Below the pieces are notes generated by a model. That model was not told the origin of the DNA, ran no database searches, and saw only the letters and a program-made list of their open reading frames with translations. Positions 27-54,195 of a DNA stretch of 64,000 nucleotides are shown here, in pieces (position 1 is the first letter of the stretch; each line of letters begins with the position of its first letter). The stretch is from a virus. Taxonomy: Duplodnaviria > Caudoviricetes. Both the position numbers and the translations under genes were made by a program. The stretch lies in the IMG/VR virus record IMGVR_UViG_3300021962_000022, one strand, 5' to 3'.

Positions 27-848
27 ATGAAAAAAATTTTAATTTCTGATTTTACAATAAAGGAAGTGCCACACGGTGGTTCTGAATGGGTAAACCAAGT
101 TTTAATTGATAAGTTTAATCTTGATTTTCAATACTCAAATCAAGTCACTTCATTTGATTATAATAATCTATACATCATATCAAATATTTCATTGATGAAT
201 CCAAATTTGGTAAGTCAAATACCTAATTTGAATTATATTATAATTGAAAACGATTACAAGATTTGTCCGAGTCGTCATCCATGGAGATATCCTGATAATA
301 TTATTCCGAATGAAGACAGAATTAATTATTCAATTTATAAGAATGCAAAGGCGGTATTCGTTCAAACAACAGACCACATGAATGTGTATTTGAAAAATGA
401 TGTGGTCGCCAATTTTATAAATTTAAATAGTTCAATATGGTCTGATAATGACTTAGAACTTTTAAGAGAATTGAATAAAAATAATTCAGTAAAGAATGAT
501 AAATACTCAGTTTACTACACCAATAATTGGATTAAAAATACACAGGGTAGTTTAAAATATTGTTCTGAAAATAAATTACCAGTTTACATTTTAAAAGAAT
601 CAAAAGATAGAGTTGAGTTTTTAACTAACCTTTCAAAATGTAAGGGTATTGTGTTTTTTCCAATTGCAAGAGAAACGTTTTGTAGGTTAGTTGTGGAATC
701 TAAATGTTTAGGTTTAGATGTAATCACAACACAAAATTATGGTGCTAGTTTAGAAGATTGGTTCCATCAATTTTCAGGTGAAGAACTTATAAATTTCTTA
801 GAATCTAACACCTCTAAGAACTTAGATATTATTTCAAATTATTTATGA
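27..848 (+). CDS. Glycosyltransferase, GT-B/GT4-like
   Basis: N-terminal HGGSE (GG-A/S-E type) loop; C-terminal E-x7-E motif (RETFCRLVVESKCLG) typical of retaining GT4 enzymes; first complete gene of the sugar operon (ATGA overlap with an upstream stop). Confidence 0.6.
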   Translation: MKKILISDFTIKEVPHGGSEWVNQVLIDKFNLDFQYSNQVTSFDYNNLYIISNISLMNPNLVSQIPNLNYIIIENDYKICPSRHPWRYPDNIIPNEDRINYSIYKNAKAVFVQTTDHMNVYLKNDVVANFINLNSSIWSDNDLELLRELNKNNSVKNDKYSVYYTNNWIKNTQGSLKYCSENKLPVYILKESKDRVEFLTNLSKCKGIVFFPIARETFCRLVVESKCLGLDVITTQNYGASLEDWFHQFSGEELINFLESNTSKNLDIISNYL

Positions 849-1837
849 TACTTTTCTGTTACGGGACTAGACCCGAATATATAAAAATTAAAAAATTAAT
901 TGAATCATGTGAAGGTGTTATACCGTATAAAGTATTGTACGTAACCCAACACAAAGACATAGTATTGGGTGATTTCGATTACAAATTAGTCATTGATGAC
1001 CTTTGTGATAATAGGTTAAACAGTATAATGGCGTCAGTCTTTTTAAACTTTAAAGAAGAATTTTTAAAAGATGTGACCCACATACTTGTTCAAGGGGATA
1101 CGGCAACCGCATTGTCACTTTCTTTAATTGGTTTACATTACAAAAAAGAAGTCATTCATTTAGAAGCTGGTCTTAGGACATATGATTACAATCATCCTTA
1201 TCCCGAAGAAATGTATCGACAACTAATAAGTCGAGTGTCAAATTATAACTTGTGTCCAACAGAAAGTAACAAACTTAATTTGGAAAATGAGAAAGTACAA
1301 GGACAAAATTTTGTAGTCGGTAACACCGTTTTAGATAATTTAGATAGAGACAATATTTCTTACGAGGATAAAGTTTTAATTACTTTACACAGACGAGAGA
1401 ATCATGAACAAATGTCCGAATGGTTTAATGAAATCAATCAACTCGCAATAGAGAATCCACAATTAGTTTTTATATTACCGATACACCCAAATCCAAATGT
1501 CCTAAAACACAAACACATACTATCACACGTTAATGTTGTTGACCCGATGAACCATGTTGATTTCATAAAGGAATTCAAATCTTCTAAAATTTTGATATCA
1601 GACAGTGGTGGGGTTCAAGAGGAAGCTGCGTTTTTAAATAAGAAAGTAATTGTCTGTCGAGAAAAAACTGAAAGACCTGAGTCAGTTGGTAAAACATCTT
1701 TTATTTGTAGAAAACCCATTGACTTAAAGGGTATTTTTTACGATATTATTAACGATTTTGACACACAGTATGAATGTCCTTATGGTGACGGTAATTCCTG
1801 TGATAAAATCGTAGAAATATTTAAAAAAATCATATGA
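845..1837 (+). CDS. wecB: UDP-N-acetylglucosamine 2-epimerase (non-hydrolysing)
   Basis: Motifs GTRPE, VQGDT, HLEAGLRT, PEE, TLHRREN, SDSGGVQEEA, RPE, YGDG in the expected order. Confidence 0.93.
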   Translation: MILFCYGTRPEYIKIKKLIESCEGVIPYKVLYVTQHKDIVLGDFDYKLVIDDLCDNRLNSIMASVFLNFKEEFLKDVTHILVQGDTATALSLSLIGLHYKKEVIHLEAGLRTYDYNHPYPEEMYRQLISRVSNYNLCPTESNKLNLENEKVQGQNFVVGNTVLDNLDRDNISYEDKVLITLHRRENHEQMSEWFNEINQLAIENPQLVFILPIHPNPNVLKHKHILSHVNVVDPMNHVDFIKEFKSSKILISDSGGVQEEAAFLNKKVIVCREKTERPESVGKTSFICRKPIDLKGIFYDIINDFDTQYECPYGDGNSCDKIVEIFKKII

Positions 1838-2562
1838 GTATAACAGTAATATTAAATGGTTATAAAAGACCTCACGTTCTTGCAAAACAATTAGAAAGTA
1901 TTAGAAATCAAAGTGTTCAACCTGAGTCAATTTTATTTTGGCAAAACTCAGGTGCCGAATTTGATTCTAATTTAACTAAGGACTTAATTCACGCGTCATC
2001 TAATCACAACTTTGGTGTTTGGGCTAGATTTGCATACGCTTTAAACGCAACAACAGAATACATTTGTGTATTTGATGATGATACCATTCCCGGTCCATTA
2101 TGGTTAGAAAATTGTTTGAATACCATGAAAATTCAAGAGGGATTATTGGGAACAATTGGTGTTAAATTTCACACAAAAAACACATATTGGCCAGCAACAA
2201 GAATTGGTTGGGATGGTCCAAATGAACAGATAGAACAAGTGGACATCGTTGGTCATTCTTGGTTTTTTAAAAGAGAATGGTTATCTATTTTTTGGAGGGA
2301 GTTACCCGAAATCAATCAAAGTAAATTGGTTGGTGAGGACATGCACTTTTCTTATACCCTACAGAAATACGCCAACATAGGTACATTCGTCCCTCCACAT
2401 CCAAAAAATAATATGGATATGTGGGGAAGCATTCCTGAACATGCTTGGAAACACGGAACCGATTCTAATGCAATTTCAGTTCACAATTCAAATATGAATT
2501 TAATGAGTGAAGTATACCGTGGTTATATCGATAAAGGTTTTAAAACCATTTTAAATCGTTAA
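1834..2562 (+). CDS. Glycosyltransferase, GT-A/GT2-like
   Basis: N-terminal SITVILNGYKR strand, YICVFDDD (DxD) motif, downstream GED motif; operon context. Confidence 0.65.
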   Translation: MSITVILNGYKRPHVLAKQLESIRNQSVQPESILFWQNSGAEFDSNLTKDLIHASSNHNFGVWARFAYALNATTEYICVFDDDTIPGPLWLENCLNTMKIQEGLLGTIGVKFHTKNTYWPATRIGWDGPNEQIEQVDIVGHSWFFKREWLSIFWRELPEINQSKLVGEDMHFSYTLQKYANIGTFVPPHPKNNMDMWGSIPEHAWKHGTDSNAISVHNSNMNLMSEVYRGYIDKGFKTILNR

Positions 2563-2567
2563 TTCAT

Positions 2568-3164
2568 ATGATTAATAAAAACGAAATAACGATTATTATA
2601 CAGGGACCATCAGTAAATGTTGGGGAATTAAGGCAACGATGGGATGGTTTTAATGTAATATGGTCAACGTGGGTTGGGGAAGAGGCAAAATACAATCAAG
2701 ATGACATTGTAATTTTCAATAATATACCATTCGATAAAGGTATCCAAAACATTGCGCTACAAAAAGAGTCAACATTAAATGGAATAAGAAAAGCAAAAGA
2801 ATTAGGTTTTAGTTGGGTTTTAAAATGGAGAAGTGATATGTTACCAAATGACTCTGAAAGTTTAATTAATTGTTTCAAAAAAGATTCAATTAACTTCTTG
2901 GCGTGGCATAATGGAGGAAAATATTTTGTTGATTACTTTGTCGGTGGTAATATCGATGACGTTTATAAAATATGGGACATTCCTCAGATATGGTCGTCCC
3001 ATTCAGAAAAAATAACAACTGATAATATTTTTTCATTAGGGTATGATAATTTTAACTTTATTGGTGATAAATTAAACACCAATAATGAAATATATTGGTC
3101 CAAATATAAAATCAATCTATCCACATATAAAGATGAGAAATGTTATACTATGGAGGTAAAATAA
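2568..3164 (+). CDS. WavE-like polysaccharide synthesis protein
   Basis: IIIQGP...VIWSTW...N-x2-LQ-x2-STLNG...VLKWRSD pattern resembles the WavE family. Confidence 0.5.
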   Translation: MINKNEITIIIQGPSVNVGELRQRWDGFNVIWSTWVGEEAKYNQDDIVIFNNIPFDKGIQNIALQKESTLNGIRKAKELGFSWVLKWRSDMLPNDSESLINCFKKDSINFLAWHNGGKYFVDYFVGGNIDDVYKIWDIPQIWSSHSEKITTDNIFSLGYDNFNFIGDKLNTNNEIYWSKYKINLSTYKDEKCYTMEVK

Positions 3165-3171
3165 TAATTAA

Positions 3172-3903
3172 ATGTACGATAATTCAAAATTTATTAATAA
3201 CGCTTTTACCGAAGACGAATATAATCTTGGGGTGTTTGTCGATTTAAATGGTAAGTGTCCTTTATGGACAAAAAAATTGATATCTAATATTAAAGATAAA
3301 ATTGATTTCAATTCCATAAACACAATATTGGATATTGGTTCAAGAGATGGGTGTCAAAGTTTAGAATTAAATCGGTGGTTTCCACATGCAAAGATTTACG
3401 CATTCGAACCCGTACCAAATAACTATGAGTTTACCGTAAAAAATGTTCAAGGTGTTGATAATATCAGAGCACTTCCATACGCAATAAATTCATTTCATGG
3501 TAAGACTAAATTTTATGAGGTATACAATGGGAACGTAGGTGCTAGTTCATTGTTAAAAACAACGAACCACTGGCGTTCATCACAATGGGCACAAAAAGAA
3601 ATTGAAGTTGAATGTATAGTCCTATCTGATTGGTTAAAAGAAAATGATGTTAACCAAGTGGATTTAATATGGATGGATGTACAAGGTGCTGAAAAAATTG
3701 TCATAGATAGTTTGGGTGATTACTTAAATGAAGTTAAAGTAATCGCAACTGAAGTCGGATTACAAGAGTTATATGTTAATTCAACTACTAAAAACGAACT
3801 TGATAAATTATTAGATGGGTTTATCGCTTTAGATGAATCACCCGAATCGTCAATGACCGAAATGGACATTATCTATATCAACAAGAAAAATGGAACAATT
3901 TAA
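3172..3903 (+). CDS. FkbM-family SAM-dependent methyltransferase
   Basis: ILDIGSRDG, IYAFEP, LIWMDVQGAE motifs. Confidence 0.88.
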   Translation: MYDNSKFINNAFTEDEYNLGVFVDLNGKCPLWTKKLISNIKDKIDFNSINTILDIGSRDGCQSLELNRWFPHAKIYAFEPVPNNYEFTVKNVQGVDNIRALPYAINSFHGKTKFYEVYNGNVGASSLLKTTNHWRSSQWAQKEIEVECIVLSDWLKENDVNQVDLIWMDVQGAEKIVIDSLGDYLNEVKVIATEVGLQELYVNSTTKNELDKLLDGFIALDESPESSMTEMDIIYINKKNGTI

Positions 3904-4609
3904 AAGTGATTTTGTAAGGTTCACCGAAAAAATAAAAAATGGTGAGAATTTTGCATACGCAAGATATGCGGATGGTGAAGTATTGTTAATGAAAGGTAAT
4001 GAGGTGGGTCAAAATACACAAGCTTTTAAAATCGATAATTGGAGTTCACCAAATCAATTAACTACCGTAGGTAATGAATTACTTGAGAGTTTATCACATA
4101 CCGAATCTAATTATTACTATGCAATTTCATCCGTATCTGACAATATTTCAGACTATAGATTTTTGACGGATAGAATTAAATCAAAAAAAGAGAATATAAC
4201 ATTCGCCAACCTATGGATAAATTCAAATTACCAGCAGATGAAAGATTTTTACATGGGGTTGGATAAGGAGTGTTTCGTTATATGTAATCATCGGGCTAAT
4301 ATCAATAATTTTCCTTTTAAAATAAAAGAATTTTTTCCATTTCCTGATAATTGTGTTGAGTTTTGGGAATCCTCAGGGTCCGACTATATGACACAAATTA
4401 ATCAAAAAATACAACAATTAAATAATGAAACTTTCTTTATATCAGCTGGACCAATTTCTGAAATAATAATACATAAACTGTACTCTTTGAACCCAAACAA
4501 TCAATATATTGATGTTGGTTCCTCAATGGATGAATTTGTCCACGGTAAAAAGACAAGACCATATATGGAACCAAATTCATTTTATTCTAAACAAATATCA
4601 GTATTCTAA
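3890..4609 (+). CDS. GT-D fold (DUF1792-like) glycosyltransferase
   Basis: ARYADGE (cf. SRFGDGE), ISAGP (cf. ALGP) and YIDVGS (cf. AIDIG) motifs in the same order as in GT-D enzymes. Confidence 0.6.
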   Translation: MEQFKSDFVRFTEKIKNGENFAYARYADGEVLLMKGNEVGQNTQAFKIDNWSSPNQLTTVGNELLESLSHTESNYYYAISSVSDNISDYRFLTDRIKSKKENITFANLWINSNYQQMKDFYMGLDKECFVICNHRANINNFPFKIKEFFPFPDNCVEFWESSGSDYMTQINQKIQQLNNETFFISAGPISEIIIHKLYSLNPNNQYIDVGSSMDEFVHGKKTRPYMEPNSFYSKQISVF

Positions 4610-5286
4610 TGATTAATATTGTATACACAAATAGTAAATGTCAAGATGTTTTTAATATTTTTAAATCACAGCACGACACATACTCAAAATTACCACTTTT
4701 TGTAATATCCGATAATGGTGGGGATTTTACTTATAGAAACGAAGACCCATATTACAAACATTGGTTAGATGCATTAAAATTGGTGAATGATGATTTTTTC
4801 ATTTACAACCAAGAGGATTTCATTCTTTATGATTCAGTAAATCATGATATTTTAAATAGATTAGAAAACTTTTTAATAGAAAATCCTGAATATTCATTTG
4901 TTAGATTAATTAAAAGTGGTCAAAATTTATCAAGAGAAGAATTGGTTGAAGACATATACCCGATTGGTGACGATTCTTTTCCACTTTATTCGATGCAGGC
5001 AACAATTTGGAATAAAAATAAATTTATCGAACTGTATGAAAATACTAAACAAGAAAAGTGGTTTGAGTCTCAATCATATGAAGATGCGTGTAAAAAATTA
5101 AATATAAGAGGCGTTTATTATTACAATGGTGAACCAAAAAGAGGTGGTCATCATGACTCATCAATTTATCCTTATATCGCAACCGCGGTTGTAAAAGGTA
5201 AATGGAATTTAAGTGAGTATAAAAATGAATTATTACCTCTACTTAACGAACATAATATAGTTATAGAAAATAGAGGTATATTTTAA
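4609..5286 (+). CDS. Putative glycosyltransferase-like protein
   Basis: FFIYNQEDFIL acidic motif after a beta strand, MQATIWNK; translationally coupled within the sugar operon. Confidence 0.4.
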   Translation: MINIVYTNSKCQDVFNIFKSQHDTYSKLPLFVISDNGGDFTYRNEDPYYKHWLDALKLVNDDFFIYNQEDFILYDSVNHDILNRLENFLIENPEYSFVRLIKSGQNLSREELVEDIYPIGDDSFPLYSMQATIWNKNKFIELYENTKQEKWFESQSYEDACKKLNIRGVYYYNGEPKRGGHHDSSIYPYIATAVVKGKWNLSEYKNELLPLLNEHNIVIENRGIF

Positions 5287-5287
5287 T

Positions 5288-5899
5288 ATGTTACTTGATT
5301 TAATTAGTCTATCAAAAAAATACAACATGAATATTAGTGGCATTATTCACATAGGTGCCCATTTCGGTGAAGAACATTCAACTTATAAGAGTTTAGGTGT
5401 AAACAATATTGTTTATTTTGAACCGGTTAAAAAAACATTTGATGTTTTAAATGAAAGAGTAACGGATGCAAAATTATATAATTACGCTTTAGGTAATGAA
5501 AATAAAATGATTGAAATGTATATTGAAGATAACGATACATATGGGTGCTCTTCAATACTTCAACCAAGTTCAAATTATGCAAACATCGCTTTTAGTCCAA
5601 ATGAATTAGTTGAAATGAAACGATTAGATGATTTTAATTTTAATGGTTTTAATCTATTAAATATAGATGTCCAAGGTTACGAATATGAAGTTTTAAAAGG
5701 TGCTGAAAAAACATTAGAAAATGTAGATTTTATTTTATGTGAAATAAATCGAGATACCCCAAATAAACAACTAGATTATATCGGCTCAAAAACGATAGAT
5801 AAAATAATAGAACTATTAACACCTTACGGTTTCAAATTGAGTGAAGAAAATTGGGCTGGAATATCGTGGGGTGATGGTTTTTTTGTAAAACAAAAATGA
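5288..5899 (+). CDS. FkbM-family SAM-dependent methyltransferase
   Basis: IIHIGAHFGEE, VYFEP, LLNIDVQGYEYEVLKGA motifs. Confidence 0.88.
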   Translation: MLLDLISLSKKYNMNISGIIHIGAHFGEEHSTYKSLGVNNIVYFEPVKKTFDVLNERVTDAKLYNYALGNENKMIEMYIEDNDTYGCSSILQPSSNYANIAFSPNELVEMKRLDDFNFNGFNLLNIDVQGYEYEVLKGAEKTLENVDFILCEINRDTPNKQLDYIGSKTIDKIIELLTPYGFKLSEENWAGISWGDGFFVKQK

Positions 5900-6573
5900 T
5901 TGTAGGTAAAGGGTTAATATCATCCGGGTTTCAGTCATCAAAAAATGACTATACCAATTACATCATATTTGCATCAGGAGTTTCGAATTCAAAAGAAACG
6001 AATGATAGTGAATATAATCGTGAAAAAGAACTGATATTAAAAACCATAAATGAAAACAAACAATTAAAAATAATTTATTTTAGTAGTGTTTTAGTTGAAA
6101 CAACCAAAAATAAGTACTATCAAAACAAATTAGATATTGAAAATCTAATCAAAACTAATTCAGATAACTATATTATTTTTAGAATTCCTCAGGTTATTGG
6201 ATACAATGGAAATCCTAAAAATTTGTTCAATTTTATAAAAAATTCTATAGTAAACGAAACCGAAATAACAATCGATAAAAACATAGAAAGGTCTCTATTA
6301 GATATTGATTATTTGGTAGATATTGTTGATTACTGTAAAGATAAAGTATCTTGCGAGATACTGACAATTTCAGGTGTAAAAAAAATAAAAGTATTTACTT
6401 TATGTAATCTAATTGGTAAAATTTTAAATAAAAAACCTATTTTAAAAATAGTCGATGATGTCGAATATAAAAATTGGTTTACCAAAAACTCTAAGATTAT
6501 TAATCAATCAATAATCAATATCAATAAACTAACTTATTATGAAACTCTTCTAAAAAAATATATTTCTCAATGA
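5896..6573 (+). CDS. NAD-dependent epimerase/dehydratase-like protein (short)
   Basis: MIVGKGLIS Rossmann-like start, FASGVSNS, YFSS, Y-x3-K (YYQNK), IFRIPQVIG. Confidence 0.6.
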   Translation: MIVGKGLISSGFQSSKNDYTNYIIFASGVSNSKETNDSEYNREKELILKTINENKQLKIIYFSSVLVETTKNKYYQNKLDIENLIKTNSDNYIIFRIPQVIGYNGNPKNLFNFIKNSIVNETEITIDKNIERSLLDIDYLVDIVDYCKDKVSCEILTISGVKKIKVFTLCNLIGKILNKKPILKIVDDVEYKNWFTKNSKIINQSIININKLTYYETLLKKYISQ

Positions 6574-7337
6574 AAGTTATAACTTTAACATTCGCCTATG
6601 ATATAAGCAAATTATTTGAAATTGGTAGATTTTGGGCCAAAGATGTTTATATCGATAAAGATTTTATATCTGATTATTCTGCCGCATCTTATGCTACTTT
6701 TTTACATACAAATCCGGATTTACAACTTCATTTATATACCGATGACATTGATTTAATTAGAGAAAAATTAAACCAATACAATGTAAATTTAAAAAATGTT
6801 GTTTATCATGATTATTCTGAAAAATTAAAATCATATGAAGGTAAATTAAAATATAGTTTTGATATTTTACATGATTTTATTATTGAGCAGAGAAGTAATA
6901 GTGAATACACGGTTAAAATTGATTGTGATTTATCATTTCGTAACAAGATACCAATGATGGATAATACAAGTAAAGATATTTTAGTTTGGAAATATGAAAG
7001 AATGTTATTTAACGGTGACCCTAGAATGGGTGAAATTAAATCATCAACGTTAAGTGTTGGTAACATTAATTATAAAATATTTAATGTTGGCTTATTGGGG
7101 ATACCACCAACATTTGAAATCGATGAATTGGATGGTGTGTATCGAAAAATGTCCGACGTTAATATTATGGATGTTTCAGATATAAAAGTAAATTCTTGGC
7201 ATTGTGCTGAACAAACATCTAAAAATTGGATTTTTCATAAATACAATTACAATGTCATTGAATCATATAACTTTGTTAATCATCATTTTGAAACCAAAAA
7301 AAAATGTATCGATGACGCCAAATATTTATTAAAATGA
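6570..7337 (+). CDS. Putative glycosyltransferase (GT-A, DxD)
   Basis: LHLYTD, VKIDCDL DxD motif, FNVG and AEQ motifs reminiscent of GT8-like enzymes. Confidence 0.45.
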   Translation: MKVITLTFAYDISKLFEIGRFWAKDVYIDKDFISDYSAASYATFLHTNPDLQLHLYTDDIDLIREKLNQYNVNLKNVVYHDYSEKLKSYEGKLKYSFDILHDFIIEQRSNSEYTVKIDCDLSFRNKIPMMDNTSKDILVWKYERMLFNGDPRMGEIKSSTLSVGNINYKIFNVGLLGIPPTFEIDELDGVYRKMSDVNIMDVSDIKVNSWHCAEQTSKNWIFHKYNYNVIESYNFVNHHFETKKKCIDDAKYLLK

Positions 7338-8152
7338 TTACAATAATAACTACAGGTAGAGATGATGATTACGGACATGGATTTTTAGATAGACTGTATT
7401 CGTCAATAAAAAATAATATAGAAATACTGCACAGTTACAGTATCGAATACGAATATATTATTTGTGAATGGAATCCGGTAAAAGAACCCCTTTTGTACCA
7501 CGAAAAATTTAAAGAATTATTTGAAAAATATAATTTAAGAGAAGTAATAATTACAAATAGTGTTGTCGAAGAAGAACGGTTAAATCATAATATTTTTTAT
7601 GAATATTTTGCAAAAAACGTCGGTGTTAGAAACGCCAAATATGAAAATATATTAATAATTAATTCAGATATTGTTATTCCTTCAGAATCCTTTTCAATTA
7701 TCATCGATAACATTAAAAATGGTTTAGAAAAAGATAAATTTTATAGATTAGAGTTCAGAGAACAAATAGATAATGATTTTAATTTTATTAAGATAGAATC
7801 TGTTTATCACCCGTCTAATCCTGATTCAGTAATATGTGGATATTGTTCTGGTGATTTTTTACTAACAAATAAAAATAGCTTTGTTGAATTTGGGATGGGA
7901 TATGACGAAACAAATTTTGCTCATAGAACCATTTCACAAACAGGTATGGATGGTGAAATATTATGGAATATGTACAATAATGGTATGAGAATAAAATTAA
8001 TTCCGACTAAGTATATGCACATAAATCACGGTAAACCTAACCCATATGATAATTACTATAATGATAAAGGATATATAAATAAGAGTAATTGGGGGTTTAT
8101 TGATTATGAACATGATGAAGTTTCAAATAAATTAATGATTATAAAAAAATGA
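7334..8152 (+). CDS. Glycosyltransferase, GT2-like
   Basis: IIITTGRDDDY start, YIICEW, KNVGVRNA, ILIINSDIV, GDF and DGE motifs. Confidence 0.6.
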   Translation: MITIITTGRDDDYGHGFLDRLYSSIKNNIEILHSYSIEYEYIICEWNPVKEPLLYHEKFKELFEKYNLREVIITNSVVEEERLNHNIFYEYFAKNVGVRNAKYENILIINSDIVIPSESFSIIIDNIKNGLEKDKFYRLEFREQIDNDFNFIKIESVYHPSNPDSVICGYCSGDFLLTNKNSFVEFGMGYDETNFAHRTISQTGMDGEILWNMYNNGMRIKLIPTKYMHINHGKPNPYDNYYNDKGYINKSNWGFIDYEHDEVSNKLMIIKK

Positions 8153-10080: not shown

Positions 10081-10112
10081 AAAAGGGGGTTATTGACCCC
10101 CTTCTTCTTTTT
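10081..10112. terminator. Bidirectional intrinsic terminator between convergent operons
   Basis: AAGGGGGT-tattg-ACCCCCTT hairpin (10083-10103) with an A-run upstream and a T-rich run downstream. Confidence 0.8.
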
Positions 10113-10383: not shown

Positions 10384-10384
10384 A

Positions 10385-10690: not shown

Positions 10691-10694
10691 TTTT

Positions 10695-26367: not shown

Positions 26368-26395
26368 TTAAAATTTTTGAACTACCCATACGGGT

Positions 26396-26740: not shown

Positions 26741-26788
26741 TTGTTAATGTATTTTATAAAATATAGGAAAAAAAAATCAATAAAAAAA

Positions 26789-47100: not shown

Positions 47101-50100
47101 ACTCGAAGTAGGTGTCACTGATGGTGTCACTGATGGTGTAACCGATGGTGTAACTGATGAAGTAGGTGTAACCGATGAGGTAACTGACGGTGTAACAGAA
47201 CTAGTGACCGATGGAGTTACAGAACTTGTTACCGAAGGTGTAATCGAAGGAGTTACCGACGGTGTCACAGACGAAGTTGGTGTTACAGACGGAGTTACAC
47301 TTGGTGTTACAGACGGAGTTACAGACGAAGTTGGTGTTACAGACGGAGTTACACTTGGTGTTACAGACGGAGTTACACTCGATGTTACAGATGGAGTAAC
47401 AGATGGAGTGACAGAACTAGTAACTGATGGAGTCACACTCGATGTTGGGGTAACTGAAGGAGTCACGGATGGGGTAACAGAACTTGTTACCGAAGGTGTT
47501 ACTGACGAAGTTGGTGTTACGGATGGAGTTACCGAAGGGGTAACAGAACTTGTTACCGATGGTGTTACAGAACTAGTAACTGAAGGTGTTAATGATGGTG
47601 TTATTGATGGTGTAACTGATGGAGTGACGCTCGAAGTAGGGGTTACTGATGAGGTGACAGAAGGTGTTACCGAACTAGTAACTGATGGTGTAACTGATGG
47701 GGTTACTGAAGGTGTTACAGAACTAGTAACCGATGGTGTCACACTTGATGTTGGAGTTACTGATGGTGTTGTACTTGGTGTAAGTGATGGGGTTACCGAT
47801 GATGTAGGTGTTACTGAAGGTGTTACCGATGGAGTAACACTTGAAGTAACTGACGGTGTAACGGATGGTGTTACACTTGGGGTAACACTCGATGTTACAG
47901 ATGGGGTCACAGAACTAGTTGGTGTAACAGACGATGTAACCGACGGGGTTATAGAAGGTGTAACTGATGGGGTTACAGAACTAGTAACTGATGGGGTTAC
48001 AGAACTTGTTACACTTGGTGTTACTGATGAGGTTGGAGTCACCGACGGAGTAACCGAAGGAGTAATCGAAGGTGTTACTGAACTAGTTGGTGTGACAGAA
48101 GATGTAACTGATGGTGTAACAGAGGGTGTAACTGATGATGTTGGGGTTACTGATGAAGTTACCGATGGGGTAACAGAACTTGTTACTGAAGGAGTAACCG
48201 AAGAAGTTGGTGTTACGGATGGGGTGACCGAACTAGTGACAGAAGGTGTTACCGATGGAGTGACACTTGAAGTAACTGACGGTGTAACTGAACTACTTGG
48301 GGTAACACTTGGGGTTACTGATGAAGTTACCGATGGTGTAACACTCGATGTCGGAGTTACTGATGGAGTAACAGAACTTGTTACTGACGGAGTTACTGAT
48401 GGTGTAACAGAAGGAGTAACACTCGGAGTTACAGATGATGTAACAGATGGTGTTACTGAACTTGTAGGGGTTACTGAAGGTGTTAGTGAAGCGGTTACCG
48501 ATGGGGTAACTGAACTTGTTGGTGTTACCGATGCGGTAACGGAAGGTGTGATAGATGGAGTAACACTTGGTGTCACCGATGAGGTTACGGATGGGGTAAC
48601 TGATGGTGTTCTACTCGGTGTTACTGACGGTGTAACAGATGATGTTGGTGTTACGGATGGTGTTACACTTGGGGTTACAGATGGTGTTACCGAACTAGTT
48701 GCAGTAACCGAAGGAGTAACTGAAGGTGTTACCGAAGGTGTGACAGAACTTGTAGGAGTAACCGATGAGGTAACAGATGGGGTCACTGATGAAGTTACTG
48801 ATGGAGTAACGCTCGATGTTGGTGTTACTGAAGATGTTACACTTGGTGTTAAGGATGGTGTGACTGATGATGTTACTGAAGGAGTTACTGATGGTGTTAT
48901 ACTTGGGGTTACAGATGATGTAACGGAAGGTGTTACTGACGATGTTGGGGTTACGCTCGGAGTTACGGATGCGGTAATAGATGGTGTTACAGAACTAGTG
49001 ACAGATGGTGTAACACTTGGTGTAACCGATGAGGTAACAGATGGGGTAACTGAACTACTTGGTGTAACGCTTGGTGTCCTCGATGGGGTAATTGATGGTG
49101 TAACAGATGAAGTTGGTGTAACTGACGGAGTAATCGAACTTGTTACAGATGGAGTTATTGAACTTGTTACAGATGGAGTTACAGAACTTGTTACCGAAGG
49201 TGTTAATGATGGTGTTACGGAACTAGTTGGTGTTACTGATGGTGTAAGTGATGGTGTGACAGATGGTGTGATAGATGGTGTAACCGAATTAGTGACTGAT
49301 GGTGTAACGGATGGTGTTACGGAACTCGAAACTGAAGGTGTTAATGATGGTGTAACTGAAGGTGTTAATGACGCGGTTACGGACGGTGTTAAACTTGGTG
49401 TTACTGAAGGTGTTGGTGTACTTGTTGGCGTTGGTGATGGTAACATCGTATAATCAATGTCACATGAAGGTGCTGGTGTAGGGGTTACTGATGGTGTTAA
49501 AGACGGAGTAACCGATGGAGTTACAGAACTAGTTGGTGTAACGCTTGGTGTGACAGATGGAGTTACTGATGGGGTGACAGAACTAGTAATAGAAGGTGTT
49601 ACCGATGAGGTTACACTTGGTGTTACTGAACTTGTAGGTGTAATTGATGGTGTAACGGAACTAGTGACCGAAGGTGTAACCGATGGTGTAACGGAACTAG
49701 TTGGGGTGACTGACGGAGTTCTACTTGGTGTTAGTGATGGTGTAATAGAAGGAGTTACACTTGGAGTAACTGAACTTGTTGGAGTAACACTCGGGGTTAC
49801 AGATGATGTAACAGAAGGTGTTACTGAACTTGTGACAGAGGGTGTTACTGATGGGGTAACAGATGGTGTTACACTTGGTGTTACTGAACTTGTAGGGGTT
49901 ACTGATGGTGTTCTAGATGTCGTAACGGAAGGGGTTACGGAACTAGTTGGTGTTACGGAACTAGTAACAGATGGTGTAACCGACGGCGTTACTGAACTAG
50001 TAACTGACGGAGTAACACTTGGGGTTTCACTTGGAGTAACCGAAGGTGTTTCACTTGGTGTTATCGACGGTGTAACCGAACTAGTAGGTGTAACCGAAGG

Positions 50101-53100
50101 TGTTTCACTTGGAGTGATTGACGGTGTTACAGAACTAGTTAGAGTAATGGAAGGTGTTATACTTGGGGTTACCGATGATGTTACTGAGGGAGTTATAGAT
50201 GGGGTTATACTCGGTGTAACCGATGCGGTGACAGATGGTGTAACTGAACTCGTGGGTGTAACTGATGGAGTTACCGATGCGGTGACAGATGGTGTAACTG
50301 AACTAGTAACACTTGGAGTAACGGATGCTGTAACTGAAGGTGTTATACTTGGTGTAACAGAACTAGTTGGGGTTACAGATGGAGTTTCACTTGGTGTTAT
50401 CGACGGTGTTATACTTGGTGTAACAGACGCAGTAACTGATGGAGTTATACTTGGTGTAACAGACGCAGTAACAGATGGTGTTACCGAACTAGTGGGTGTA
50501 ACCGAAGGTGTTTCACTTGGAGTTATACTTGGTGTAACAGAACTAGTGACTGATGGTGTAACACTTGCGGTAACGGAAGGTGTCACTGATGGTGTAACCG
50601 ATGCGGTAACTGATGGTGTTATACTTGGTGTAACGGAACTAGTAACAGATGGTGTCACCGAAGGTGTAACAGATGATGTCGGTGTAACACTTGGTGTTTC
50701 ACTTGGAGTTATACTTGGTGTAACTGATGATGTCGGTGTAACACTTGGTGTTTCACTTGGAGTTATACTTGGTGTAACTGACGGAGTAACACTTGATGTT
50801 GGAGTTACAGATGGGGTTATACTTGGAGTTACCGATGCAGTAACCGACGGTGTAACCGAACTAGTTGGTGTAACAGATGGAGTTTCACTTGGTGTGATAC
50901 TTGGTGTAACGGAACTAGTAACAGATGGGGTTATACTTGGAGTTACCGATGCAGTAACCGACGGTGTTACTGAACTAGTTGGGGTTACAGATGGAGTTTC
51001 ACTTGGTGTTATCGACGGTGTTACGGAACTGGTTGGTGTAACTGAACTAGTAACACTAGGTGTTATACTTGGTGTAACTGAACTAGTAGGTGTAACACTT
51101 GGTGTAACGCTTGGTGTTACGGATGAAGTAACCGAAGGTGTAACTGAACTAGTCGGTGTAACACTTGGTGTTTCACTAGGTGTAACCGATGCGGTAACAG
51201 ATGGTGTTACTGAACTAGTAGGTGTAACACTTGGTGTTTCACTTGGTGTGATTGATGGTGTTATACTTGGTGTAACGGATGATGTTGGGGTTACAGATGG
51301 AGTTTCACTTGGAGTTATACTTGGAGTAACCGACGGTGTAACTGAACTAGTTGGTGTAACAGATGGAGTTTCACTTGGTGTGATACTTGGAGTTATACTT
51401 GGAGTAACTGATGATGTTGGTGTGATAGATGGTGTAACTGAACTAGTAACTGATGGAGTTACAGAACTTGTTGGGGTTATAGACGGAGTTTCACTAGGAG
51501 TGATTGACGGTGTTATACTTGGTGTAACTGATGAAGTAACAGATGGGGTTACTGATGGTGTTACTGAACTAGTGACACTTGGAGTAACTGAACTAGAGGG
51601 TGTAACCGAAGGTGTTGCACTTGGTGTTATACTTGGTGTAACTGATGATGTTGGTGTGACTGATGGAGTTACAGAACTAGTAACTGACGGAGTAACACTT
51701 GATGTTGGTGTAACACTTGGTGTTTCACTTGGAGTGATTGATGGTGTTATACTTGGTGTAACGGAACTAGTAACACTAGGTGTTATACTTGGTGTAACTG
51801 AACTAGTAACAGATGGTGTTACCGATGGTGTTTCACTTGGTGTTATACTTGGTGTAGCAGATGGTGTTACTGAACTAGTAGGTGTAACACTTGGTGTTTC
51901 ACTTGGTGTAACGGAACTAGTAACAGATGGTGTTATTGAAGGAGTTACAGAACTAGTGACTGATGGAGTTACTGAACTTGTCACACTTGGTGTAAGTGAT
52001 GGGGTAACAGAACTTGTTGGAGTTACGGAAGGTGTGATTGATGGTGTAACTGAAGGTGTTCTTGAGGGTGTTAAACTTGGTGTTACAGATGAACTTACAG
52101 ATGGAGTAACCGAACTTGTAACCGAAGGGGTTACGGAACTAGTTGGTGTTACGGAACTAGTAACAGATGGTGTTATTGAAGGAGTTACGGAAGGTGTTAA
52201 TGATGGTGTTACAGATGATGTTACAGAAGGGGTTACCGAAGGTGTTACAGAAGGTGTAACTGATGACGTTGGTGTTACGGAACTAGTAATCGATGGGGTT
52301 ACACTTGAAGTAACAGATGGTGTAACTGAACTAGTAACTGAAGGTGTTAATGATGGTGTTCTTGATGGTGTAACAGAAGGAGTTACGGATGAGGTTGGTG
52401 TAACCGATGAGGTAACCGATGGTGTAACCGAACTAGTAACTGAAGGGGTTACCGAGCTCGTTACTGATGGAGTAACACTTGAAGTTACAGAAGGAGTTAC
52501 GGAAGGTGTTATACTCGAGGTTGGGGTTACTGACGGTGTCAATGATGGTGTAACGGAACTAGTGACCGAAGGTGTAACCGATGGTGTAACTGATGGAGTG
52601 ACACTTGGTGTAATCGATGGGGTAACAGATGATGTTGGGGTGACTGACGGTGTTATACTTGGTGTAATTGATGGGGTTACCGATGATGTAGGTGTTACTG
52701 AAGGTGTTACCGATGGAGTGACACTTGAAGTAACTGACGGTGTAACGGATGGTGTTACACTTGGAGTCAATGAACTTGTAACTGATGGTGTTACAGATGA
52801 TGTCGGAGTTACTGATGGAGTAACAGAGGGTGTAACAGAACTAGTAACTGATGGTGTTACTGATGGTGTTAGTGATGGTGTAACTGAACTTGTAACAGAA
52901 GGTGTTACCGATGGTGTAACTGAACTAGTGACCGAAGGTGTAACCGATGGAGTTACAGACGAAGTTGGGGTTACACTTGGTGTGATTGACGGGGTAACCG
53001 AAGGGGTTACAGAACTAGTAACACTTGGAGTTACGGAACTGGTAACAGATGGTGTTACCGATGGAGTTACAGATGATGTTGGTGTTACTGAAGGGGTTAC

Positions 53101-54195
53101 TGAACTTGTTATCGATGGTGTTAATGATGGGGTTACTGAACTTGTTGGTGTTACAGAGCTTGTAACTGACGGTGTAACACTTGAAGTAATTGATGGTGTA
53201 ACACTCGGAGTTACGGAACTTGTTGGAGTTACAGATGGTGTGACTGATGGTGTGATAGATGGTGTAACCGAACTAGTAGGTGTAACTGATGGAGTTACTG
53301 AAGCGGTTATAGATGGAGTCACTGAACTCGTAACAGATGGTGTAACGGAACTTGTTGGGGTTATAGATGGTGTTAAAGACGGAGTAACCGATGGTGTAAC
53401 TGATGGAGTTACTGAACTTGTTGGTGTAACAGAACTAGTAACAGATGGTGTTACTGAAGAAGTTGGTGTAACAGATGTGGTAACCGATGGTGTTACTGAA
53501 GGTGTAACCGACGAAGTTGGTGTTACAGACGGAGTCTCACTTGGAGTTAACGACGGTGTTAAACTTGGTGTTACTGAAGAAGTTGGTGTAACAGATGTGG
53601 TAACCGATGGTGTGATAGAAGGAGTAACTGATGGTGTAACACTTGGAGTAACTGAACTTGTTGGTGTTACACTTGGAGTCTCTGAAGGTGTAATAGATGG
53701 AGTTACAGAGCTAGTGGGTGTGATTGATGGTGTAATCGAGCTAGTTGGAGTTACAGAAGGTGTAACTGATGGTGTAACATCTGGTGTTCTTGTTGGTGTA
53801 ACCGATGGGGTTGGGGTAATTGAACTCGTTGGAGTAACTGATGGAGTCACTGATGGAGTTGAAGTTACTGATGGGGTTGTTGTGACAGTTGGTGTTACTG
53901 AAGGTGTGGTTGTGACAGTTGGTGTAACAGGAGGTGTACTTTGTGGTGTTGGCGTTAAACTTGGTGTAACAGAAGGTGTAATTGAAGGTGTTGGGGATGG
54001 ACAATTAATTGCCGCGTAACATGTTTTGTCATGCGATGGAAAATAAACTGAATAGGTTCCTAAGTAATAAGTTGTGTCGTAATAATACGGCATCACAACA
54101 GTACCTAAATTAATGGTACCGCCAGTACAGGGATAAAATGTGATAACACCAATTTCACCATCAAAATTACCTGTGTTTATCTTTATTAATGCCAT
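38200..54195 (-). CDS. Giant 5331-aa mucin-like Thr-Pro-Ser-Val repeat protein
   Basis: Uninterrupted 16-kb ORF with non-repetitive N- and C-terminal domains, internal Cys modules, and a consensus promoter upstream. Confidence 0.85.
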   Translation of the reverse strand: MALIKINTGNFDGEIGVITFYPCTGGTINLGTVVMPYYYDTTYYLGTYSVYFPSHDKTCYAAINCPSPTPSITPSVTPSLTPTPQSTPPVTPTVTTTPSVTPTVTTTPSVTSTPSVTPSVTPTSSITPTPSVTPTRTPDVTPSVTPSVTPTSSITPSITPTSSVTPSITPSETPSVTPTSSVTPSVTPSVTPSITPSVTTSVTPTSSVTPSLTPSLTPSETPSVTPTSSVTPSVTPSVTTSVTPTSSVTPSVTSSVTPTSSVTPSVTPSVTPSLTPSITPTSSVTPSVTSSVTPSITASVTPSVTPTSSVTPSITPSVTPSVTPTSSVTPSVTPSITSSVTPSVTSSVTPTSSVTPSLTPSITSSVTPSVTPTSSVTPSVTPSVTSSVTPSVTSSVTPSVTPSITPSVTPTSSVTPSVTPSVTSSVTPSVTPSVTSSVTPSLTPSVTPSVTSSVTPSVTPSVTPTSSVTPSVTSSLTPSVTPSVTPSVTSSVTPSVTPSVTPTSSVTPSITPSITPSVTPTSSVTPSITPSVTPSVTPSVTPSVTSSVTPSLTPSVTPTSSITPSVTPSVTSSVTPSVTSSVTPSVTSSVTPSVTSSVTPTSSVTPSVTPSRTPSLTPSVTSSVTPSVTSSVTPSITSSVTPTSSVTPSVTPSVTPSVTSSVTPSLTPSVTPSITPSVTSSVTPTSSVTPSVTSSVTPSVSSSVTPSLTPSRTPSVTPSITPSVTPTSSVTPSLTPSVTSSVTPSVTSSVTPSITPSVTSSVTPSETPSVTPTSSVTPSATPSITPSETPSVTPSVTSSVTPSITPSVTSSVTPSITPSITPSETPSVTPTSSVTPSVTSSVTPSVTPTSSVTPSITPSATPSVTPSSSVTPSVTSSVTPSVTPSVTSSVTPSITPSITPSETPSITPTSSVTPSVTSSVTPSITPTSSVTPSITPSITPSETPSVTPTSSVTPSVTPSITPSETPSVTPTSSVTPSITPSITPSETPSVTPTSSVTPSVTASVTPSETPSVTPTSSVTPSVTSSVTPSVTPSVTPTSSVTPSITPSVTSSVTPTSSVTPSITPSETPSVTPTSSVTPSVTASVTPSITPSVTSSVTPSITPSETPSVTPTSSVTPSVTASVTPSITPSVTPTSSVTPSVTPSITPSETPSVTPTSSVTPSITPSETPSVTPTSSVTPSVTPSVTSSVTPSITPSVTASVTPSVTPSVTASVTPSVTSSVTPSITPSETPSVTPTSSVTPSVTASVTPSITPSVTASVTPSITPSITPSETPSVTPTSSVTPSITPSVTASVTPSVTSSVTPSVTASVTPSVTPTSSVTPSVTASVTPSITPSITPSVTSSVTPSITPSITLTSSVTPSITPSETPSVTPTSSVTPSITPSETPSVTPSETPSVTPSVTSSVTPSVTPSVTSSVTPTSSVTPSVTTSRTPSVTPTSSVTPSVTPSVTPSVTPSVTSSVTPSVTSSVTPSVTPTSSVTPSVTPSITPSLTPSRTPSVTPTSSVTPSVTPSVTSSVTPSITPTSSVTPSVTSSVTPSITSSVTPSVTPSVTPSVTPTSSVTPSVTPSLTPSVTPTPAPSCDIDYTMLPSPTPTSTPTPSVTPSLTPSVTASLTPSVTPSLTPSVSSSVTPSVTPSVTNSVTPSITPSVTPSLTPSVTPTSSVTPSLTPSVTSSVTPSVTSSITPSVTSSITPSVTPTSSVTPSITPSRTPSVTPSSSVTPSVTSSVTPSVTPSVTSSVTPSITASVTPSVTPTSSVTPSVTSSVTPSITPSVTPSVTSSVTPSLTPSVTSSVTPTSSVTPSVTSSVTPSVTSSVTPTSSVTPSVTPSVTPSVTATSSVTPSVTPSVTPSVTPTSSVTPSVTPSRTPSVTPSVTSSVTPSVTPSITPSVTASVTPTSSVTPSVTASLTPSVTPTSSVTPSVTSSVTPSVTPSVTPSVTPSVTSSVTPSVTPTSSVTPSVTSSVTPSVTPSSSVTPSVTSSVTPSVTPSVTSSVTPSVTPTSSVTPSVTSSVTPSVTSSVTPTSSVTPSVTPSVTSSVTPTSSVTPSITPSVTPSVTPTSSVTPSVTSSVTPSVTSSVTPSVTPSITPSVTSSVTPTSSVTPSVTSSVTPSVTPSVTPSVTSSVTPSVTPSVTPTSSVTPSLTPSTTPSVTPTSSVTPSVTSSVTPSVTPSVTPSVTSSVTPSVTSSVTPTSSVTPSVTPSITPSLTPSVTSSVTPSVTSSVTPSVTPSVTPTSSVTPSVTSSVTPSVTPSVTPTSSVTPSVTSSVTPSVTPSVTSSVTPSVTPSVTPSVTPTSSVTPSVTPSVTPSVTPTSSVTPSVTPSITPSVTSSVTPSVTSSVTPSVTSSVTPTSSVTPSVTPSVTPSVTPTSSVTPSVTSSVTPTSSVTPSVTPSVTPTSSVTPSVTPSVTPTSSVTPSVTPSVTPTSSVTPSVTPSVTPTSSVTPSVTPSVTPTSSVTPSVTSSVTPSVTPSVTSSITPSITPSRTPSVTPTSSVTPSVTSSVTPSVTPSVTPSVTSSVTPSVTSSVTPTSSVTPSVTPSVTSSVTPSVTPSVTSSVTPSLTPSVTPTSSVTPSVTPSRTPSVTPTSSVTPSVTPSVTSSVTPSVTSSITPSVTPSVTSSVTPTSSVTPSVTSSVTPSLTPSVTPSVTSSVTPSVTPSVTPTSSVTPSVTSSVTPSVTPSVTSSVTPSVTPSVTPSVTPTSSVTPSVTPSVTPSVTPSVTPSVTSSVTPSVTPSVTPTSSVTPSVTSSVTPSLTPSVTPSVTSSVTPSVTSSVTPTSSVTPSVTPSRTPSVTPSVTSSITPSVTPSITPSVTPTSSVTPSVTSSVTPSITPSVTSSVTPSVTPSVTSSVTPTSSVTPSVTSSVTPSITPSVTSSVTPSITPSVTPSVTPTSSVTPSVTSSVTPSITPTSSVTPSVTASVTPSVTPSVTSSVTPSVTPSVTPTSSVTPSVTPSVTPSVTPTSSVTPSVTPSVTPSVTSSVTPSVTPSVTASVTPTSSVTPSVTSSVTPSVTPSVTPSVTSSVTPSVTPSVTPTSSVTPSITPSITPSVTSSVTPSVTSSVTPSVTPSVTPTSSVTPSVTPSVTPSVTPSVTPSVTSSVTPSVTPSVTPTSSVTPSITPSRTPSVTSSVTPSVTSSVTPSVTASVTPTSSVTPSITPSVTPSVTPTSSVTPSVTSSVTPSVTSSVTPSVTASVTPSVTPSVTPTSSVTPSVTSSVTPSVTPTSSVTPSVTPSRTPSVTPSVTSSVTPSVTSSVTPSVTPTSSVTPSVTSSVTPSVTSSVTPSVTSSVTPSVTPSVTPTSSVTPSATPSITPSVTSSVTPSVTSSITPSVTPSVTPTSSVTPSLTPSVTPSVTPTSSITPSVTSSVTPSVTSSVTPTSSVTPSVTPSRTPSVTPSVTPSVTSSVTPSVTPSVTPTSSVTPSVTSSVTPSVTATSSVTPSVTPSVTPSVTSSVTPSVTSSVTPSVTPTSSVTPSVTSSVTPSVTPTSSVTPSITPSRTPSVTPSVTSSVTPSVTSSVTPSITPTSSVTPSITPSVTPSVTPTSSVTPSVTPSVTPSVTSSVTPSVTSSVTPSVTPSVTPTSSVTPSVTPSVTPSVTPTSSVTPSVTPSVTSSVTPSVTSSVTPSVTSSVTPSVTPSVTSSVTPSVTSSVTPSITPTSSVTPSVTPSVTPSVTATSSVTPSVTPSVTSSVTPTSSVTPSITPSRTPSVTPSVTSSVTPSLTPSVTPSVTATSSVTPSITPSTTPSVTPTSSVTPSITPSVTPSVTSSVTPSVTSSVTPSVTPSVTPTSSVTPSLTPSVTPSVTATSSVTPSVTPSLTPSVTPTSSVTPSITPSVTPSVTSSVTPSVTSSITPSVTSSVTPTSSVTPSVTPSRTPSVTPSSSVTPSVTPSITPSLTPSVTPSVTSSVTPSVTPSVTPTSSVTPSVTPSVTPSVTPTSSVTPSVTSSVTPSVTSTSSVTPSLTPSVTPSVTSTSSVTPSLTPSVTPSVTPTSSVTPSITPSVTSSVTPTSSVTPSVTPSVTPSVTSSVTPSITSSVTPSVTPSVTPTSSVTPSVTPSRTPSVTATSSVTPSVTPSVTPSVTATSSVTPSVTSSVTPSVTPSSSVTPSVTPSVTSSVTPSVTPSVTPSVTSSVTPSVTPSVTPSSSVTPSLTPSTTPSVTPSSSVTPSLTPSVTSSVTPTSSVTPSLTPSTTPSVTPSSSVTPSVTPSVTPSVTPTSSVTPSVTSSRTPSVTPSSSVTPSVTSSITPSTTPSVTPSSSVTPSVTASITPSTTPSVTATSSVTPSVTPSRTPSVTPTSSVTPSVTPSVTPSITPTSSVTPSVTPSLTPSVTPSSSVTPSITPSTTPSITPSSSVTPSITSSVTPSVTPSSSVTPSITPSRTPSVTPTSSVTPSVTPSVTPSVTATSSVTPSVTPSLTPSVTPSSSVTPSITPSTTPSVTPTSSVTPSVTPSVTPSVTATSSVTPSITPSTTPSVTPTSSVTPSRTPEPTSSVTPSVTPSRTASVTPSLTPSVTPTSSVTPSVTSSVTPSVTPTSSVTPSVTSSVTPSVTPSVTPSVTSSVTPSVTSSVTPTSSVTPSVTPSVTPSVTPTSSVTPSVTPTPSRTPDPTRSVTPSVTPTSSITPSVTSSVTPTSSVTPSVTPTVTPTSSVTPSVTPSVTPSSSVTPSVTPTVTPSTVIVSVQTQSCCDNNIYNINMTQGDFNYITGNPGIYPFGGTCYQSFVLIANGAYPFYTLASSKFADCASCNAVFTCPTPSPTPTSSVTATPSRTPSLTPSRTPSVTPSITPSLTPTSSVTASITPSTTPSVTPSSSVTPSITPSTTPSVTPSSSVTPSITPSTTPSVTATSSVTPSITPSRTPSVTPSSSVTPSITPSTTPSVTPSSSVTPDPTRSVTPSVTPTSSVTPSVTPTPSRTPDPTRSVTPSVTPTSSVTPSVTPSVTPSSSVTPSITPSLTPTSSVTPSPSPQYIGAVFTSCCAGDTTIYQGRVPIGTAIGTVFYIQSAQLCARFDDFGPNTGPIYTSSYGSCEECILETFQNCPSVTPSRTASVTPSITPSVTPSRTPSVTPTPSVTPSLTPSRTASVTPSRTAGASPPPTPSVTPSRTASVTPSVTPSVTPSVTPSVTPTSSVTPSRTASVTPSLTPSVTPSRTPTPSVTPSLTPSVTPSVTPSSSPAAAGVSPTPTPTPSSTPPCDCREWLVTQLNNWNFVSYTDCQGNAQTLSDPAYWEANGGNHELVLCACGAPNVGGFPWTGSVSVIGACDCKCTEINITDRDITDYGQVYMYYQCCDGQFFQRLYTTATTESRCISRVMYLAVFDRGVWYTIPNLGGTSGFSYGVTCCGGAHGCGCEEVC
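38690..54000 (-). repeat. Degenerate 12/18-nt coding tandem repeat (TPSV/TSSV/TPSI/TPTSSV)
   Basis: Plus strand reads as variants of gatggtgtaac(a/t/c/g); wobble positions vary; interrupted at ~49440-49480, ~40000-40225 and ~39140-39350. Confidence 0.95.
46853..47062. repeat. Five near-perfect 42-nt tandem copies inside the giant gene
   Basis: gaagtaggtgtcactgatggtgtaaccgatggtgtaac(tgat/actc) at 46853, 46895, 46937, 46979, 47021. Confidence 0.9.

Follow-up and report, generated by a model that had tools for sequence, protein, structure and literature searches.

The 64,000-nucleotide (nt) stretch of phage DNA analysed here (IMG/VR record IMGVR_UViG_3300021962_000022, Caudoviricetes), called the window throughout, encodes a giant protein of 5,331 amino acids (aa), most of which is one long linker of alternating hydroxyl residues and regular prolines, and also a glycan operon with several glycosyltransferases (GTs). 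We establish here the gene structure, conservation and synteny of these loci, the enzyme families of the operon, and the swapping of its cassettes among related phages. We suggest that the giant is a hyper-expanded tethered adhesin of the fibre module, built on a proline/threonine (PT) linker, and that the operon is a separate, exchangeable cassette for which the PT linkers would be the best candidate acceptors, a reading to which we give an even chance, with glycosylation of the linkers being plausible in itself. A first-pass annotation, made from the letters alone, had placed an operon at 27–10080 and four Ser/Thr/Pro-repeat proteins at 32926–54195, and all of them are present, with their open reading frames (ORFs), coordinates and compositions confirmed.

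The giant consists of 29% Ser, 26% Thr, 18% Pro and 17% Val, with Ser and Thr together reaching 54%, and Ser or Thr stands at both i and i+2 in 46% of its positions. Its linker (Table 1) is composed of 31% Ser, 27% Thr, 19% Pro, 19% Val and ~1% charged residues, and it is interrupted solely by a 14-residue landmark, APSCDIDYTMLPSP, at residues 1575–1588 (49432–49473), of which APSCDIDY is kept in the relatives L003 and G006. The C-terminal domain is rare, with only 20 matches among 1.84 billion representative proteins, and the AlphaFold2 (AF2) model made with this 20-sequence alignment reached a predicted local distance difference test score (pLDDT) of 89.6, with two small all-beta lobes. Foldseek returned nothing for this domain at E <= 0.001 against PDB and BFVD, the VIA wide search gave only generic beta sandwiches of the C2 or jelly-roll kind (best Z 3.9), the best Atlas match was an unnamed viral cluster (TM 0.53), and an IMG/VR search with the back-translated domain found nothing. 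At the other end of the protein, a complex prediction on three copies of the N-terminal domain scored 0.00, which is evidence neither way.

The DNA repeats of the giant gene match one another at 65–98% (mostly 65–88%), their periods are multiples of 6, all synonymous codons are used, and the G+C content is 42–46% within the repeat vs. ~31% outside of it in the window. Given such degenerate DNA repeats and mixed codons, the array looks like an old one held by protein-level selection, and not like the product of fresh slippage. A frame open over 16 kb is beyond chance, and the N-terminal domain, the 14-aa landmark and the C-terminal domains are kept in independent assemblies. In one sequencing run of freshwater DNA (X5), an in-frame 12-nt insertion (GAAGGTGTTACA) was seen at window position 52237 at about half depth, and the same run holds many alternative joins inside the repeat, which fits length polymorphism or assembly ambiguity. 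On the + strand, the repeat gives rise to antisense ORFs at 40181–49453 and 49457–54019, which are by-products of the repeat (GVTDGVT...) that stay open for thousands of codons. Public gene calls, namely the L002 and L003 tables, choose such antisense frames and cut the true gene short, as in the “396-aa” P0006, and thus, by way of split genes and antisense “GVTDGVT” ORFs, these giants are systematically missed and under-reported in databases. A set of 5.8 billion proteins searched by means of the N-terminal domain contained no full-length giant, probably because gene callers fragment such genes. The near-consensus promoter-like motif before the giant gene is flanked by the direct repeat TCTATTTTTATT, the neighbouring structural genes having instead A/T-rich, TATAAATA-like upstream motifs. 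Contigs of three metatranscriptome libraries from three studies match 44806–45054, 48942–49091 and 54169–54462 with 0–2 mismatches, and these matches in the repeats and at the 5′ end are a weak hint of transcription, with DNA carry-over being possible.

Among relatives, the length of the syntenic gene goes from 325 + 329 aa in G004 through 2,737 aa in G009, 2,940 aa in G010 and at least 4,688 aa in G011 to the 5,331 aa of the window and 5,472 aa in G002, the latter being a colinear 288-kb contig, 92% complete, and an 89% relative of the window. The N-terminal domain keeps the identity given in Table 1 while the rest of the protein is rewritten. The repeat wording is TPSV in the window, G010 and G011, TPTN in G002 and L064 (0–2% Ser), and TPT(I/V) in L058 and L051, with 0–8% Ser overall in the TPTN/TPTI relatives; what is kept through these changes of wording are the alternating hydroxyls, the regular prolines and a charge of ~2%. 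If selection acts on this physical character of the linker, including its lack of charge, then its length and wording would be free to drift.

The same N-terminal domain has paralogues (38–48% identity) that begin other linker proteins. Two of these lie between the capsid and sheath genes, in G002 at 52194–53120 (L118:12194–13117) and in G006 at 56865–58613 (L160:16865–18613). Both have a short TPSV linker followed by a domain similar to F5/8 type C, or discoidin (E 3e-5, below cut-off); they might represent another class of carbohydrate binders on tethers. The orthologous giant of L003 carries amid its repeat array a DUF642 domain, a jelly roll of carbohydrate-binding type (3065–3637, above cut-off), and in more distant relatives the homologue of the 1,413-aa structural protein itself bears a C-terminal PT linker with modules. 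In G002, PT linkers occur in only 6 of ~309 genes, all of them within structural regions.

These structural regions indicate the kind of phage concerned. The same relative, G002, encodes a gp23-type capsid protein (PF07068, 5e-65), a tail sheath (PF04984, 1e-12) and a gp25 baseplate wedge (PF04965, 7e-15), all above cut-off, and is therefore a T4-like, contractile-tailed jumbo phage; judging from these genes, the source of the window is a T4-like freshwater jumbo myophage of ~290 kb. One strand of G002 carries, in this order, the gp23-like capsid gene (31 kb), the sheath gene (67 kb), the gp25 gene (92.5 kb), the homologues of window positions 63868–54289, the 5,472-aa giant, and the Cys-module genes, after which come the replication genes. 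The six upstream structural genes are colinear in all relatives and, in G002, follow the gp25 gene on the same strand. By gene order, the giant is thus placed as the gene that closes the baseplate/fibre module.

Table 1. Features of the window, with positions, strand and basis.
Feature	Position	Strand	Basis or remark
Giant protein, 5,331 aa	38200–54195	-	ORF and translation
Promoter-like region before the giant gene, TTGACA-N17-TATATT	54196–54288	-	Read from the sequence
N-terminal 66-aa globular conserved domain, putative virion anchor	53998–54195	-	Residues 1–66; 80–91% identity in relatives
TPSV linker, 4,589 residues	40231–53997	-	Residues 67–4655
Distal end of the giant	38203–40230	-	Cys modules A1 and A2, linkers, C-terminal domain
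Cys module A1, ~80 aa	39985–40230	-	Residues 4656–4737
Cys module A2, ~80 aa	39121–39369	-	Residues 4943–5025
Cys-rich C-terminal domain, 165 aa, two-lobed, all-beta	38203–38697	-	Residues 5167–5331
608-aa protein, Cys modules joined by PT linkers	36329–38155	-	Translation
235-aa protein: N-terminal beta domain, PT linker, Cys module	35619–36326	-	Homologue in L003
762-aa protein, at least 5 Cys modules on TPSV linkers	32926–35214	-	Weak phrog_15511 match
Six conserved structural-module genes (212, 586, 276, 388, 305 and 1,413 aa)	54289–63868	-	Directly upstream of the giant
Compact GT-B-fold GT, 273 aa	27–848	+	AF2 (pLDDT 92) and Foldseek
WecB-type UDP-GlcNAc 2-epimerase	845–1837	+	PF02350, 3.5e-58; TIGR00236, 212 bits, above cut-off
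GT2 glycosyltransferase	1834–2562	+	PF00535, 1.2e-07, above cut-off
Possible WavE-like glycan enzyme (weak)	2568–3164	+	PF07507, E 0.001, below cut-off
FkbM-family methyltransferase 1	3172–3903	+	PF05050, 6e-17
GT-D (DUF1792) glycosyltransferase	3890–4609	+	PF08759 in homologues of 57–62% identity
Seven further operon genes	4609–9078	+	Weak or absent matches apart from two
TIGR04440-like (weak hint)	4609–5286	+	Profile match
FkbM methyltransferase 2	5288–5899	+	PF05050, 7.1e-20
Cap5F/RmlD-like (weak hint)	5896–6573	+	Weak match
Relative of PDB “Transglycosylse” entries	8149–9078	+	7XPR/7YUA (also 7XPU), E 2.6e-15
SDR nucleotide-sugar epimerase/reductase, GDP-fucose-synthase-like	9079–10080	+	PF01370, 8e-47

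The operon spans 27–10080 as 13 co-directional, mostly overlapping ORFs, and given that in G002 it extends upstream by three more genes, two of them of GT2 type, the window cuts it. Its first product in the window had been taken for a GT4 enzyme. The GT-B fold is clear, with Foldseek against PDB giving a probability of 1.00 for MGD1, BshA, HepE and OtsA, and with TarM and SdgB also listed; GT4 enzymes are among the best matches, but GT5, GT20 and GT28 enzymes match about equally well, and Pfam Glycos_transf_1 remains below its cut-off (E 0.057); the fold stands, with GT4 as one of several candidate families. This protein has 290 database relatives at 63–87% conservation; no GtfB-like partner was identified for it, and the DUF1975 insertion is absent from its only 273 aa. 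The GT-D/DUF1792 assignment of the 3890–4609 product, made in the same annotation, is confirmed by an indirect route: a direct Pfam scan gave no match, but PF08759 is found in its homologues (Table 1), and the top PDB match of the family profile is 4PFX/4PHR, the DUF1792 protein of S. parasanguinis, with a weak E of 0.039. The alignment passes through the (F/Y)(G/A)DGE motif (YARYADGE vs. VRFGDGE), and both PF08759 membership and the metal-binding DxE motif region are thus found via homologues and profile.

The capacity for O-methylation was also rightly claimed, as the operon has two FkbM domains. Among the remaining products, those of 6570–7337 and 7334–8152 have no matches, the best NCBIfam match of the 9079–10080 product is GDPFucSynFcl (6e-31, below its cut-off), and for the PDB deposits 7XPR, 7XPU and 7YUA, entitled “Transglycosylse”, the enzyme role was not found in the literature. 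Clear transmembrane segments are absent from all 13 operon products, with one borderline stretch in the 7334–8152 product, and the Pfam and NCBIfam searches of these products matched no flippase, polymerase or initiating phosphoglycosyltransferase.

Between relatives, the operon keeps a fixed slot beside the homologue of 10385–10690 while its content is swapped. Between the window and G002, its flanks are 80–98% identical, some of its members are 77–89% identical, others are only 42–59% identical, and three, which lie within 4609–9078 of the window, are absent. The same slot in G009 holds a CmcI-like methyltransferase, a GT2, a PhyH dioxygenase, a GH130-like protein (below the Pfam cut-off), an acetyltransferase, WbqC, DegT and a double GT2. 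The first gene of the operon (Glyco_tranf_2_5) keeps its position, with an identity of only 32% between G002 and G009, and in G004 an operon of FkbM/HtrL/GT7 type is located elsewhere in the genome. A side observation concerns G007, where locus L145 (10640–17518) is a single 2,292-aa ORF with a Pfam FkbM methyltransferase domain, to which further methyltransferase-like, GT2-like and GT-B-like segments, judged by eye, are fused; it looks like a fused glycan operon, comparable to the multi-domain glycosyltransferases of chloroviruses.

Phage receptor-binding proteins usually combine a conserved N-terminus with a distal binding part that varies. Following this layout, the giant and its three smaller neighbours would form the host-distal end of the baseplate/fibre module on one shared plan, namely a small N-terminal anchor on the virion, an uncharged Pro/Thr/Ser/Val linker, and, as likely ligand binders, small Cys-rich beta modules at the end or, in paralogues, discoidin- and DUF642-type domains. 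The tether would be extended, uncharged and probably protease-resistant, so that the modules at its end could sweep through a wide space around the virus particle. From the polymer behaviour of polyproline-II-like and mucin-like chains, the contour of the linker is put at ~1.4–1.6 µm (4,589 residues × 0.31–0.36 nm); as a random coil, its reach would be far smaller, from tens to ~100–150 nm depending on stiffness, and glycosylation would stiffen it. The operon enzymes, for their part, would work in the cytoplasm, where nucleotide sugars would be synthesized and several sugars transferred and O-methylated. As the phage is T4-like and lytic, and the enzymes are soluble and come with no export machinery, the acceptor is expected in the cytoplasm, and the PT linkers are obvious candidates for it; the likeliest targets would be proteins exposed on the virion, and among these the PT linkers would be the best candidates.

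Several points weigh against the tethered-adhesin reading. The six conserved structural genes upstream of the giant have no Pfam, PHROG or PDB match, with nothing usable in the ESM Atlas, and thus belong to no known baseplate or fibre family in these searches. No known binding domain was matched by the Cys modules in Pfam, Foldseek or VIA, and a cysteine-rich protein made in the cytoplasm is unusual. The exact repeat length depends on metagenome assembly from short-read contigs. Virion location, adhesin role and linker glycosylation are, moreover, three steps that we infer. As for the operon, it lies 23–28 kb from the repeat genes on the opposite strand, its cassette does not co-vary with the repeat wording, since G010 (TPSV) and G002 (TPTN) have one cassette in common at 86% nt identity, and the glycan machinery remains in G004 and G007, where the giant is absent from the syntenic position.

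The last two of these observations also tell against the proposal of the first-pass annotation, in which the operon is a dedicated, co-evolved system akin to that of the serine-rich repeat proteins (SRRPs), with a GT4-type enzyme priming Ser/Thr, the GT-D and other enzymes extending the glycan, and an O-methylated filament as the result. The GT-B (GT4-like) and GT-D enzymes are indeed present, SdgB, the glycosyltransferase of Ser-Asp repeats, stands at rank 29 among the Foldseek GT-B matches, the enzymes are all soluble and the giant lacks a signal peptide, which puts both in the cytoplasm, and both loci are hypervariable in an otherwise conserved genome. However, only the enzyme folds agree with an SRRP system. 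The giant N-terminus, MALIKINTGNFDGE, is not a long accessory Sec signal peptide and has no hydrophobic segment (maximum 19-residue Kyte-Doolittle value of 1.17); its C-terminus has no LPXTG and ends in the Cys-rich domain (...GCGCEEVC); the Pfam families of accessory Sec (SecA2, SecY2, Asp1-3) are absent from the window proteins scanned; a GtfA/GtfB pair with the DUF1975 insertion was not recognized, the 27–848 product fitting many GT-B families about equally; and the repeat unit contains Pro (SVTP/TPSV) instead of forming an (S-x)n array, with non-repeat domains at both ends. We regard a dedicated system as improbable. As to the co-occurrence check put forward along with it, every related contig covering both regions has both features, but G004 and G007 lack the giant at the syntenic position; PT linkers go together with glycan genes in all clade members seen, which leaves co-occurrence unable to tell the models apart.

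A looser alternative is that the two loci have nothing to do with each other, the operon modifying capsid or tail proteins, the envelope of the infected host or the phage DNA, and the PT linkers being bare spacers. The distance and opposite strands of the loci, with replication genes between them, and a cassette that does not follow the repeat wording fit this, and glycan operons with no known target are common in large phages, four core GT orthogroups being found in another aquatic jumbo lineage (PMC12619734). On the other hand, the operon has no membrane components, against seroconversion of Gtr type or export of Wzx/Wzy type. Its at least 13 genes, including sugar O-methylation, far exceed the known needs of DNA glycosylation, PT linkers are classical sites of bacterial O-glycosylation, and both features occur in all clade members seen; we therefore rate unrelated loci as unlikely, while still likelier than the dedicated system. 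Less probable than either is that the giant is no part of the virion at all, and is instead a gel, decoy or shield released at lysis or a runaway repeat expansion of little function. It does seem to have its own strong sigma70-like promoter, unlike its neighbours, its extreme length variation suggests a weak constraint on length, and no homology to known structural proteins was found. Nevertheless, several independent lineages have kept its frame open over 8–16 kb although the DNA repeats are degenerate, its N- and C-terminal domains are conserved, its indel variants are in frame, and its gene is the last of the baseplate module, with which it shares the strand. A bolder version of the tethered-adhesin reading, which we consider rather doubtful, is that the whole clade of abundant freshwater T4-like jumbo phages deploys O-glycosylated, O-methylated “fishing-line” adhesins of micrometre contour, in which tether length would evolve 15-fold and the sugar coat would be swapped by cassette exchange, with length and glycan type together tuning capture radius, stiffness, and resistance to proteases and grazers.

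As regards the wider distribution of this phage, a 43-kb IMG/VR fragment (G001) is 99% identical to the window and overlaps it from base 498, stopping short of 54200–64000, more than 200 IMG/VR contigs have homologues of the 1,413-aa protein at 47–100% identity, and DNA of the phage was found again in metagenomes of at least 14 studies, mostly from freshwater. No close relative was found among GenBank phages by megablast and tblastn of the structural genes, with only distant SbcC matches, and no look-alike stretches were found in the other genomes scanned. Moraphages have DnaK/DnaJ heat-shock genes in all members and are separate from the T4 group (PMC12619734); the source is probably not one of them, as G002, at its 92% completeness, has no HSP70 match and has a gp23-type capsid gene. 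In a complete 269-kb IMG/VR phage (G003), the regions at 163–172 kb and 223–224 kb include PT-linker proteins, two FkbM genes and a match to the type-B Cys module. It was dropped from the co-occurrence test since, despite the shared Cys-module match, it is only distantly related, and its PT-linker proteins at this distance mean that the design of modules on linkers crosses phage lineages. Next to the giant, the 608-aa protein has an N-terminal part of 215 aa found at 47–79% in 18 viral contigs, and in L002 and G002 its gene follows immediately after that of the giant. The window also encodes a sigma-70-type factor (20709–21521), a ClpP protease (22806–23480), an SbcC/SbcD-like pair split by three small genes (23519–28130), a DnaG-type primase, and a Dam methylase.

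To our knowledge, the giant is one of the longest phage proteins. A gene that varies from ~325 to 5,472 aa with interchangeable wording is a natural experiment on how tether length affects adsorption under dilute conditions. Should the linkers be glycosylated by the operon, aquatic T4-like phages would join the giant viruses of eukaryotes and the mycobacteriophages as cases of virus-encoded protein glycosylation, and would also supply soluble enzymes of bacterial type for O-glycosylation and sugar methylation, along with an acceptor that is simple and repetitive. If the fishing-line version is true as well, these proteins would be the phage equivalent of mucins and would give the phage a new way of searching for hosts in dilute water.

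Compared with known systems, the giant resembles the SRRPs (Fap1, GspB, PsrP and SraP) in its multi-thousand-residue, hydroxyl-rich repeat with small non-repeat domains, and the window resembles them in its soluble cytoplasmic GTs, including a GT-D/DUF1792 and a GT-B enzyme; in contrast, its non-repeat domains are unrelated Cys-rich beta modules, and its place is a phage fibre module and not a bacterial surface, so that the resemblance would be a functional analogy at most and not family membership. In the Megavirinae, clade-specific glycan gene clusters glycosylate the capsid fibrils (PMC10117803). Like the operon, these clusters combine nucleotide-sugar enzymes with several GTs, need no host secretory machinery and have lineage-specific content, but they belong to giant viruses of eukaryotes, their fibril proteins are not PT-repeat giants, and glycan attachment was proven chemically there, whereas here it is a prediction. 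Virion glycosylation is also described for the mycobacteriophages Che8, Corndog and Myrna (Freeman et al. 2023, as cited in PMC12619734), which, like the window, have phage-encoded GTs and reportedly decorate virion proteins made in the cytoplasm, using as acceptors short C-terminal stretches of capsid and tail-tube subunits, with few GT genes. The window and its relative differ from them in having 13–16 genes and, as candidate acceptors, thousands of linker residues on fibre-module proteins. As for long appendages, phage phiCbK carries a filament on its head that is reportedly ~200 nm long. This long, flexible filament is proposed to make a first encounter with the host more likely (PMC3556154), and it is likened here, by description, to the giant as a proposed long flexible appendage. 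In sheer length, the giants, with 5,331–5,472 aa, surpass the tape measure protein of Thermus phage P23-45, which has 5,002 residues and is called giant by its authors (PMC10770324). There, however, a helical tape measure is joined to an RNA polymerase, and the giant is a linker protein of low complexity encoded outside the tail-tube genes; our literature searches returned no description of PT-repeat giants in phages. Bacterial glycoside hydrolases and cellulosomal proteins also contain PT linkers, which are often extended, O-glycosylated and resistant to proteases. These linkers join small modules by uncharged Pro/Thr/Ser stretches just as in the giant, with the difference that a typical PT linker has 20–100 residues vs. 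the 4,589 found here in a phage structural module.

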